IMG/VR virus record: IMGVR_UViG_2663762603_000001
Source of the DNA: a virus
Taxonomy: Duplodnaviria > Heunggongvirae > Uroviricota > Caudoviricetes
Length of the DNA stretch: 49,809 bases
Strand: one strand, 5' to 3'
Below are positions 17,191-18,650 of the stretch, piece by piece. Within the stretch, counting starts at the first letter, position 1, and every line of letters starts with the position of its first letter. Position numbers and translations under genes: made by a program. Below the pieces are notes generated by a model. The model did not search any database. It was not told where the DNA came from and worked only from the letters and a program-made list of their open reading frames with translations.

Positions 17191-17363
17191 GTGGTGATGG
17201 TGGACTTCAGCAGCCGGATAATGTCGGTGCTGTCTGATGGTGTTTTGGTGGCGGGTGTGTGGTTGTTGCTTTCCCGTTGCTGAAAAAGAAAGCATCAGGC
17301 GATTAGCAGGGTATCAGTTACCCGTTGAAATTTTTAAATACCTCACAATTCCACAGCTTGATG

Positions 17364-17560
17364 ATTGTCTGGCTGCCGGAGAATTTGTTAAAAATTACAT
17401 CGCATGGTGAATCCCCCTCAGCGGCGGGGCATCTGGCAAAGTGTATGATCCAGAGAACATGCAAATTCAGTAGACAGGCTGAATTTACCGGGAGGCCCCT
17501 GGCACCATGCGACAGACAGAAATTAGGCTATACTTCAGCCCCTCTCCGGAGGGGCTTTTC
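17364..17560 (+). repeat. copy 1 of ~200-bp diverged direct repeat ending in AGCCCCTC-TCCG-GAGGGGCT hairpin + T-tract
   Basis: shares ATTGTCTGGC…TTTGTTAAAAA…CGCATGGTGAATCCCCCT…GAATTCACCGGGAGGC…GGCACCATGC…AGCCCCTCTCCGGAGGGGCT with copy 2. Confidence 0.7.
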
Positions 17561-17832
17561 TGTGCAGGATGTGTCACAGTTTCCTGAATTCTGAGTACTG
17601 TCCTGTTACTCAGGGTGCTATATTTTCTGACGTGATGAAAGTCTGCCGGAAGGCGGAACGTATCGGAAATGACCCAGTAGAGAAAACGTTGACTCAGATA
17701 CCGATGCTGAGTTACCGGGAAACCGGCATCACATGACCGCTATCCTTCCAGGCTCGCTCCGGCGGGCCTTTTTACTGCAGAAAACAGTTTTCCCGTAAAA
17801 TGCCACGTTGCTCATAATTCAGGCTGGCGATT

Positions 17833-18031
17833 ATTGTCTGGCCGGCGGGAAGTTTGTTAAAAAATTTCGCATGGTGAATCCCCCTGTGCGGAGGGGTAAT
17901 CAGCGAGTAGGTATATGGGATAATCGCGGATTCAGGTGCTGGTACTGAATTCACCGGGAGGCACCCGGCACCATGCAATGGCACATAGCGCCACTCTCCA
18001 GCCCCTCTCCGGAGGGGCTGTTTATATTGAT
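17833..18031 (+). repeat. copy 2 of ~200-bp diverged direct repeat ending in identical hairpin
   Basis: see copy 1. Confidence 0.7.
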
Positions 18032-18054
18032 TTTGTCAGATGTGAGTAAACTCC

Positions 18055-18390
18055 TTATGGACTTTGTTGTTTTAGCCCATAAGGACATATTTGCAGAGTG
18101 CAACGGTTATTAAAGCATTCATTCAATACGTTATCTGTATTTGTAGGGCATTCCTGGCTGTTTTTGATTAAATTCCAGAATGTTTTATTGAATGGTACTA
18201 CGTTGTAAATGGTTACAGGTAGCACTTTGTTATTGAGCATGATGCCTGTGTGAGTCAGTGTAAATATACTTTCAGGAGGTAAGAAAGCATCCGATTGATA
18301 CCAGATTATTAATTTTATTTTACTCCATATGACTGAAAAAGATATTCCGCATGATGGCTGGATAACTGTATCAATCACAATCCACTTCAT
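18055..18390 (-). CDS. hypothetical Cys-containing protein, antisense to late operon
   Basis: 111-aa ORF with AAGGA SD 7 nt upstream; low-GC DNA between tRNA cluster and nanS-p-like gene. Confidence 0.45.
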
Positions 18391-18650
18391 TTAGTTTCCT
18401 TGTTTATGCCTTGCTGGTGATGTTCTGAAAAGTATAAATGATATTTTTGATTGTAAACCATAGAGCAGAATTATTTTTCTGATGTTGTTTATTGTTTATT
18501 TAAATGCAGGGTGGTTTATATCTCGTCTTGTAGTTTATCCATGCATATCTGCTTGATGATGAGGTTTTTATTTAAGGTATGGTTTTGTGTTTTTTCTGTA
18601 TTACATGTCAGGTATTTTAAAGAATCATTTTTCAGATGGTGGAAAGAACC

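Follow-up and report, generated by a model that had tools for sequence, protein, structure and literature searches.

We analysed a 49,809-nucleotide (nt) stretch of Caudoviricetes DNA, IMG/VR record IMGVR_UViG_2663762603_000001 (hereafter the window), and in particular the interval between its transfer RNA (tRNA) cluster and the esterase gene that begins at position 18636. This interval is the accessory ("moron") slot in the late operon of a lambdoid prophage resembling Qin and phi-potB, between the tRNA cluster and nanS-p. It very probably holds a tandem array of three paralogous small RNA (sRNA) genes of the STnc100 family, two intact and one diverged, together with the convergent anti-adaptor gene iraL. 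The order of genes in the window is Q, a DPPY methyltransferase, two intact tRNAs, the interval, an esterase of the SASA/DUF1737 type and the lysis genes; annotation and Pfam searches agree with an earlier note on this DNA, which had recognised the same order. The features of the slot and its flanks are listed below.

14451-15272: Q gene, 273 amino acids (aa)
15847-16896: DPPY methyltransferase gene
16946-17021, plus strand: tRNA with anticodon CAU, ileZ-type (ARAGORN; Rfam tRNA model, 72.5 bits; tRNA-Ile in the RefSeq annotation of an identical genome)
17031-17107, plus strand: tRNA-Arg (UCG), argN-type (ARAGORN; Rfam tRNA model, 44.9 bits)
17122-17163, plus strand: truncated tRNA-Arg(UCU) gene argO, first 42 nt, ending just past the anticodon loop; left edge of a deletion
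17167-17283, plus strand: 5'-truncated small hydrophobic open reading frame (ORF) of the DUF3927 family, 38 aa, with an internal GTG and no Shine-Dalgarno (SD) sequence; right edge of the deletion
17340-17565, plus strand: STnc100 copy 1, with the 5' box CTCACAATTC from 17342 and the Rfam match at 17372-17565
17537-17556, plus strand: intrinsic terminator of copy 1, an 8-base-pair (bp) GC-rich stem with loop TCCG, then TTTTCT
17601-17776, plus strand: diverged STnc100-like middle unit (RF02076, 30 bits, E 1.3e-3)
17750-17769, plus strand: terminator of the middle unit, AGGCTCGC-TCCG-GCGGGCCT followed by TTTTT
17810-18029, plus strand: STnc100 copy 2, with the 5' box CTCATAATTC from 17811 and the Rfam match at 17841-18029
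17999-18020, plus strand: intrinsic terminator of copy 2, a 9-bp stem then a T-rich run, 35 nt past the stop codon of the convergent iraL
18055-18390, minus strand: iraL, 111 aa, RssB anti-adaptor of the IraM/IraL/RssC family (NCBIfam NF007393 and sequence identity)
18391-18635: AT-rich divergent intergenic region with a putative iraL promoter, 29% GC
18636-20507, plus strand: NanS-p-type sialate O-acetylesterase (Pfam DUF1737, SASA and DUF6645), the first gene to the right of the slot; its RefSeq name is SASA family carbohydrate esterase

The earlier note had reported two direct repeats of about 200 bp, each ending in the same perfect hairpin, and had proposed that they were duplicated small-RNA or terminator modules. 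The repeats are present: a direct-repeat finder returned three blocks in register at a spacing of 466-469 nt, and pairwise alignment of copy 1 with copy 2 gave 81% column identity over 239 columns. The common hairpin, AGCCCCTC-TCCG-GAGGGGCT, lies at 17537-17556 in copy 1 and inside the 9-bp stem at 17999-18020 in copy 2. Homology between the copies starts about 30 nt upstream of the starts first assigned to them, at CTCACAATTC (17342) and CTCATAATTC (17811), and the unit is therefore about 220 nt long rather than about 200 nt. When searched with the Rfam model RF02076 (STnc100, "Gammaproteobacterial sRNA"; gathering score 47 bits), copy 1 matched at 17372-17565 with 138 bits (E 3e-31) and copy 2 at 17841-18029 with 132.5 bits (E 7.5e-30), model positions 1-206 being covered in each case. 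Both repeats are full-length members of the STnc100 family of prophage sRNAs, with matches far beyond chance, and each gene carries an intrinsic terminator, so that the proposal of sRNA or terminator modules was right. A terminator scan found 13 terminator-like sites (hairpin and T-run) compared to 4.1 expected. Copy 2 was 95% identical to the single copy that stands beside iraL in strain CFT073.

The structure of the family was assessed in an alignment of 51 non-identical homologues, including both window copies and 60 nt of upstream flank, which was folded with RNAalifold. The consensus consists of an 8-bp closing helix (GCAUGGUG/CACCAUGC), internal hairpins (CCCCC/GGGGG, GGGUUCAG/CUGAACUC and CCGGG/CCCGG) and the terminator. 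Compensatory changes were observed at 7 pairs; at one of these, 26 sequences have GC and 24 have AU. Scaffold segments were 90-97% conserved, and two variable modules, one internal and the other forming the linker before the terminator, were 55-60% conserved, with length differences that are not multiples of three. It is mainly in the internal variable module and the pre-terminator linker that copies 1 and 2 differ from each other. At least 90% of the homologues also share a box, CTCACAATTCAG, which precedes the Rfam start by about 30 nt. Minimum free energy folds of both copies gave the family architecture, with z scores of -3.16 for copy 1 and -2.79 for copy 2.

On the minus strand, a promoter-like sequence (TTAACA, 16 nt, GACAAT) was noted at 17391-17364 and again at 17860-17833; the two sites overlap copies 1 and 2 at their 5' ends, in the same register. 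The bases beneath these sites, TTTGTTAA and TTGTC, were at least 90% conserved in the homologues. The sites may represent a divergent promoter, or may simply be conserved RNA sequence.

The count of two copies given previously was correct for the full-length repeats, but a third unit with its own terminator had been overlooked between them. The interval is therefore a three-unit tandem array and not two isolated repeats. This middle unit was present in 13 of 13 triple arrays among IMG/VR loci, and it shared 81% identity with its counterpart in another haplotype, in which the flanking copies are more divergent.

The minus-strand ORF beyond copy 2, which had been described as a low-GC ORF of 111 aa with a good SD sequence, was found as such: AAGGAA precedes its ATG, and its GC content is 34.8%, compared to 29% in the upstream spacer and 50.3% in the window. 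A homology search, which the earlier note had called for, showed that the ORF is not an unknown gene but encodes the characterised anti-adaptor IraL. The product matched NCBIfam NF007393 ("anti-adapter protein IraM") over residues 1-110 with 162 bits, against a cut-off of 121, and was identical at 111 of 111 positions to CFT073 IraL (WP_000871291.1), which is encoded in the potB prophage. The neighbourhood in CFT073 phi-potB is also the same, with tRNAs, DUF3927, STnc100 and iraL. Identity was 62% to K-12 IraM and 75% to the iraM-like gene product of an Stx2a phage (Stx, Shiga toxin). CFT073 IraL, the product of a gene in the potB prophage, binds the N-domain of RssB and, as an RssB anti-adaptor, stabilises sigma-S (PMC4045071); by analogy with this identical protein, IraL of the window would bind RssB and stabilise sigma-S. 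The transcription start of CFT073 iraL was mapped by 5'RACE, and a promoter clone spanned -100 to +33 (PMC4045071). Mapping that clone onto the window, we infer a start site near 18423; a TATACT hexamer resembling a -10 element lies on the minus strand at 18436-18431. K-12 iraM differs, in that its upstream region gave no convincing alignment, and a three-way upstream alignment that included K-12 iraM showed little similarity to K-12 beyond the start codon. As the upstream region is unlike that of K-12 iraM, PhoP-dependent control of the iraM type should not be assumed for the window gene.

Relatives of the two STnc100 copies have been studied in pathogenic E. coli. Hfq-bound sRNAs occupy the moron slot of eight Sakai prophages, and one of them, EcOnc27, is encoded 3' of stx2B, convergently with AsxR (Tree et al. 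2014, PMC4104026). EcOnc27 gave Northern bands of approximately 235 and 247 nt and was destabilised without Hfq (PMC4104026). Its Northern probe matches the linker and terminator of the STnc100 gene of prophage Sp5. By our own calculation, an RNA of this size has its 5' end close to the conserved box or slightly upstream of it, and the peak obtained by crosslinking and analysis of cDNA (CRAC) falls over the 3' closing strand, linker and terminator once the coordinates are corrected for the AsxR offset. EcOnc27 is the same RNA as sRNA103, overexpression of which raises fimZ and espA transcripts (PMC7873438, PMC12711010). In strain EDL933, 11 annotated STnc100 copies were transcribed in culture, one of them confirmed by Northern blot (PMC5331693), and STnc100 was detected in outer-membrane vesicles of Shiga toxin-producing E. 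coli (PMC12370729). For Salmonella LT2, a figure legend describes an RpoD and RpoN binding pattern at STnc100 promoter regions, obtained by chromatin immunoprecipitation with exonuclease treatment (ChIP-exo; PMC10794520). By analogy with EcOnc27 (Northern blot and Hfq-CRAC) and with the EDL933 homologues (RNA-seq and Northern blot), the window copies would be transcribed as discrete Hfq-associated RNAs. They share with EcOnc27/sRNA103 of the Stx2 phages of enterohaemorrhagic E. coli the helices, the terminator and a late-region position upstream of nanS-p and the lysis genes. They differ in arrangement, as those phages have a single copy whereas the window has two full copies and a diverged unit, without stx upstream. 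The window copies are approximately 66-69% identical to the Stx2a-phage copy, mostly owing to the variable modules.

More distant relatives are PasD1 and PasD2 of enteropathogenic E. coli (EPEC) E2348/69, homologues of EcOnc13, which a 2026 preprint relates to STnc100. Like the window units, PasD is a structured Hfq sRNA (about 172 nt) that follows a DUF3927 ORF and stands directly upstream of a sialate esterase gene. Unlike them, PasD2 scored only 41 bits on the STnc100 model, and the PasD seed, UUGUGAG, which pairs with CUCACA, is absent from the window units. TGTGAG did not occur on the plus strand of any of the three units, and its sole plus-strand site in 17100-18100 was at 18041, outside them. 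No window unit is PasD; the middle unit was aligned to PasD2 of E2348/69 as a candidate and rejected, as the seed was absent and similarity was low. The box CTCACAATTCAG (17342-17353 and 17811-17822) contains CUCACA, the motif reported in PasD targets. If transcription includes the box, pairing between PasD-type RNAs and STnc100 would be possible, but for now the shared 6-mer is to be regarded as coincidence.

The locus was also compared to the convergent sRNA dyads EcOnc27/AsxR and EcOnc06/AgvB (Tree et al. 2014), which likewise occupy the moron slot 3' of PR' and have an STnc100-type sense partner. The window differs from these in having no antisense anti-sRNA; copy 2 is instead convergent with a protein gene, iraL. 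Searches for AsxR and AgvB (RF02702 and RF02703, anti-sRNAs of 51-60 nt) gave no match at E values up to 1 in 14000-21000, and their conserved 3' region was not matched with up to 3 mismatches. None reached the gathering score in ten related loci, and AsxR of Sakai Sp5, used as the positive control, was recovered with 88 bits.

We propose that each intact unit would yield a structured RNA of about 190-230 nt, in which the closing helix surrounds three hairpins and is followed by a variable single-stranded linker and a Rho-independent terminator. Their homology with EcOnc27/sRNA103 and PasD suggests Hfq-bound, trans-acting sRNAs that are expressed in the lysogen. The three terminators would close lysogen-state transcription before nanS-p and the lysis genes, and after induction, to judge from the biology of lambdoid late operons, they would be passed by Q-modified polymerase coming from PR'. 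IraL would be made from its own promoter.

Of 5,426 complete E. coli genomes, 1,012 matched at least 80% of positions 16900-18700, many of them with 100% identity. The triple array was present in 570 of these 5,426 genomes (461 at 99% identity or more), and STnc100-like sequence in 2,862, about half, at up to 12 places per genome. No non-coding RNA is annotated in the interval in the RefSeq record of strain DA33133. A 16-mer scan of genome contigs for the STnc100 core returned nearly exclusively chance matches in unrelated phyla, with the element in only four loci. A longer pattern located the core in IMG/VR viral contigs at 120 loci. In all 120, the element has Q, methylase and tRNA genes to one side of it and iraM-like, nanS or holin-lysozyme genes to the other, and a DUF3927 ORF or stx2AB sometimes stands directly upstream of it. 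One unit was found in 102 of these loci, two in 4, three (full, diverged, full) in 13 and four in 1. As locus L129 carries four adjacent STnc100 copies (2265-3380) and locus L183 carries two (1363-1843), all above the Rfam threshold, tandem amplification of the gene recurs.

The left part of the slot carries a deletion. The truncated argO of the window aligns with the intact argO of the Stx2a phage L003 as far as 17163 and then diverges. Most IMG/VR loci with the tRNA cluster lose homology exactly at this position, and many resume at 17164 after about 650 bp or more. The junction at 17163/17164 is thus a 654-bp deletion that fuses half of argO to the 5'-truncated DUF3927 ORF; no microhomology was seen at the junction. 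What the window has lost can be read from the IMG/VR locus L180, where the 654 bp contain the 3' half of argO, a terminator (GGCTCGCTTTTGCGGGCC, then T6), a terB-like ORF (about 143 aa) and codons 1-3 of the DUF3927 ORF, whose intact homologue there starts ATG-CGT-CTG just upstream of the junction. Because these codons were removed, the window ORF at 17167-17283 is 5'-truncated and is probably a remnant; it matched Pfam PF13064 with 42.6 bits over profile positions 11-39 of 53 and is named DUF3927 family protein in RefSeq. With the loss of the terminator that normally follows argO, the terminators of the array become the first after the tRNAs. The junction was present in 325 of the 5,426 complete genomes. 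The earlier note had raised the possibility of scars of cargo exchange: a real scar does exist, but it lies at this junction, just outside the interval then considered, and not in the repeats.

The space between argO and the first STnc100 gene was compared in 77 loci. It was empty (110-171 nt) in 29 and held an insert of 600-1000 nt in 35, stx2AB in 3, a deletion of the window type in 4 and other contents in 6. A DUF3927 match was found in 15 of the 35 loci with an insert; L180, the one such locus that was read, carries the terB-like ORF and DUF3927. The order in CFT073 is three tRNAs, DUF3927, one STnc100 and iraL, and in EPEC E2348/69 it is Q, DUF3927, PasD2 and esterase.

Several observations weigh against the explanation proposed above. 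A consensus promoter scan found no plus-strand site upstream of either copy, and the total count equalled the shuffle expectation; by eye, only weak -10-like hexamers (TTAAAT or TGTAAT) were seen, 5-6 nt upstream of the conserved box, with no -35 element. As no convincing sigma-70 promoter was found, independent transcription of the window copies rests on their homologues, and the lack of such a promoter is the main gap in the explanation. The middle unit falls below the RF02076 gathering score and is not filed as a member; its single-sequence fold (z -1.63) was no better than those of shuffled sequences. It may be a decaying copy and is of uncertain function. The two intact copies are likely to act on different host targets, because they differ in the internal module and in the linker, the part crosslinked to Hfq in EcOnc27. 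This point is drawn from sequence divergence, and for no STnc100 RNA did we find a direct target demonstrated in the literature, which offers only the fimZ and espA changes on overexpression.

The absence of a clear sigma-70 promoter would fit units that are purely cis-acting terminator or insulator modules, keeping lysogen-state transcription out of nanS-p and the lysis genes, with RNA bodies that have no function in trans. The three plus-strand hairpins with T-runs (17537-17556, 17750-17769 and 17999-18020), the excess of such sites over expectation and the loss of the post-argO terminator are also consistent with this reading. However, the roughly 150 nt before each terminator are 90-97% conserved with compensatory changes, which a bare terminator does not need, and members of the family accumulate as discrete Hfq-dependent RNAs; we therefore consider it improbable. 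Less probable still is that the repeats are inert scars or pseudogenes of repeated cargo exchange at the toxin site, kept by linkage only. The slot is indeed highly polymorphic among the 77 loci, the middle unit is degenerate and the deletion scar at 17163/17164 is genuine, but both full copies keep every family helix at about 90 bits above threshold, 461 genomes carry the array at 99% identity or more, and homologues of the copies are expressed. Finally, ORFs of 89 aa (17325-17594, plus strand) and 70 aa (17772-17984, minus strand), hypothetical-protein coding sequences in phage records, a partial pseudo-coding sequence in RefSeq (17859-17984) and ribosome footprints on some EDL933 copies (PMC5331693) could be taken to mean that the repeats encode small proteins. 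Protein coding was rejected, and we give it next to no credence: there was no Pfam or NCBIfam match, no ORF is conserved across the 51 homologues, in which the longest ORF switches strand and length, the variable regions differ by lengths that are not multiples of three, and the covariation fits RNA helices. An array of STnc100 sRNA genes with a convergent iraL thus remains the reading that we favour.

As the order of genes resembled that of Stx-converting phages, the earlier note had proposed an Stx-phage architecture without stx, in which the repeats and the antisense ORF occupy the place of the toxin. The absence of A- and B-subunit ORFs was borne out: tblastn of Stx2A and Stx2B against the whole window gave chance matches only (best E 1.7 and 0.54, respectively). 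The Stx2a phage LC567829 has, in sequence, the methylase, three tRNAs, stx2A, stx2B, STnc100 (149.5 bits, starting 75 nt after stx2B), a minus-strand iraM-like gene and the nanS-p esterase. Window positions 16900-17163, from the end of the methylase gene through ileZ and argN to the 5' half of argO, are 95% identical to this phage, and stx2A and stx2B follow argO there, so that the interval does correspond in position to the Stx slot. Positions 17853-18800 are colinear, at 70% identity, with its STnc100, iraM-like gene and start of the esterase gene. Copy 2 is colinear with the STnc100 that follows stx2B in the Stx2a phage L003. In Sakai Sp5, STnc100 (207.7 bits) begins 75 nt after stx2B, and next come the anti-sRNA AsxR (88 bits), convergent with it, and the esterase.

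A replacement of the toxin by the repeats and the antisense ORF was not upheld, as copy 2 and iraL belong to the backbone that flanks the toxin; being colinear with the segment after stx2B, they form the 3' flank that coexists with stx in Stx phages. Only 17164-17852 sits at the position of stx2AB, and it contains the deletion junction (argO'/'DUF3927), copy 1 and the diverged unit. The window thus has the homologous late-region flanks of an Stx-converting phage and lacks stxA and stxB between the tRNAs and nanS-p. With the stx2AB moron of Sp5 and LC567829 it shares the ileZ-argN-argO left flank (95%) and the STnc100 and nanS-p right flank; it differs in the absence of stxA/stxB, in the deleted 3' half and terminator of argO, and in a Q gene and early region of another phage type. 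The opposite possibility named in the earlier note, a common backbone segment with no relation to stx-flanking sequence and no transcripts, held in part: the segment is common backbone, as its occurrence in 1,012 of 5,426 genomes indicates, but its relationship to the sequence that flanks stx is clear, and the literature documents transcripts from the family. An Stx-phage architecture did not hold for the prophage as a whole, because the backbone is Qin/phi-potB-like. The remainder of the prophage carries dicB, DicF, hokD/sok, rem and the 273-aa Q, and adjoins ompW.

Three further RNA genes, all known from Qin-like prophages, were found in the window.

4537-4588: DicF RNA (76.7 bits)
11882-12056: sok, adjoining hokD (114 bits)
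48235-48433: IS009 RNA (223.8 bits)

In the stretch 1-1328, the integrase gene occupies 198-1328, and the prophage lies next to ompW. The tail-fibre region at approximately 43.6-48.3 kb (43624-48332) was the only large part without a match in the prophage of strain DA33133, to which the remainder is about 99% identical, and it resembles an exchanged host-range module. Two partly overlapping genes, on opposite strands, occupy 22653-24282, a stretch bounded by the lysis cassette and the terminase. One encodes a 206-aa protein that matched the PADLOC model "cll" (106.9 bits) and belongs to the sce7726 family in RefSeq, and the other a 355-aa protein that matched Pfam Beta_protein (190 bits) and also the PADLOC models PD-Lambda-2_C and beta. 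We regard the pair as a probable anti-phage defence module, carried by the prophage in a second accessory slot. Accessory genes were also present at 8733-11308, between the replication region and hokD, and include a 299-aa SMEK-domain protein that matched the PADLOC model Aga_REase-PNTD (72 bits) and, on the opposite strand, a class I SAM methyltransferase and a hypothetical protein.

All components of the locus belong to described families, hundreds of sequenced genomes carry the identical sequence, and the locus is an ordinary one, largely already explained, rather than a new kind of system. We found no description in the literature of the tandem array, the diverged middle unit or the deletion junction, and these are modest additions. 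The results give names to an interval left as hypothetical proteins or unannotated in genome records, namely two STnc100 genes, a diverged unit and iraL. A more speculative view, which we regard as possible but rather doubtful, is that the array is "seed-diversified", with a conserved Hfq-binding scaffold and two hypervariable modules directing each paralogue to different host mRNAs, and that the 5' box and scaffold serve as the right homology arm, and the tRNA cluster as the left, for the swapping of cargo, including stx2AB, between lambdoid phages. The locus would then combine a regulator cassette with a landing pad, which would account for the place of toxin gene gain and loss. The comparison further establishes how the toxin slot is organised: stx2AB lies between argO and a conserved STnc100 gene, and in non-Stx relatives this space is empty, filled by a 600-1000-nt insert or deleted. 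This geometry aids the reading of stx gain and loss, and of the published links between single-nucleotide polymorphisms just downstream of stx2B and clinical outcome.

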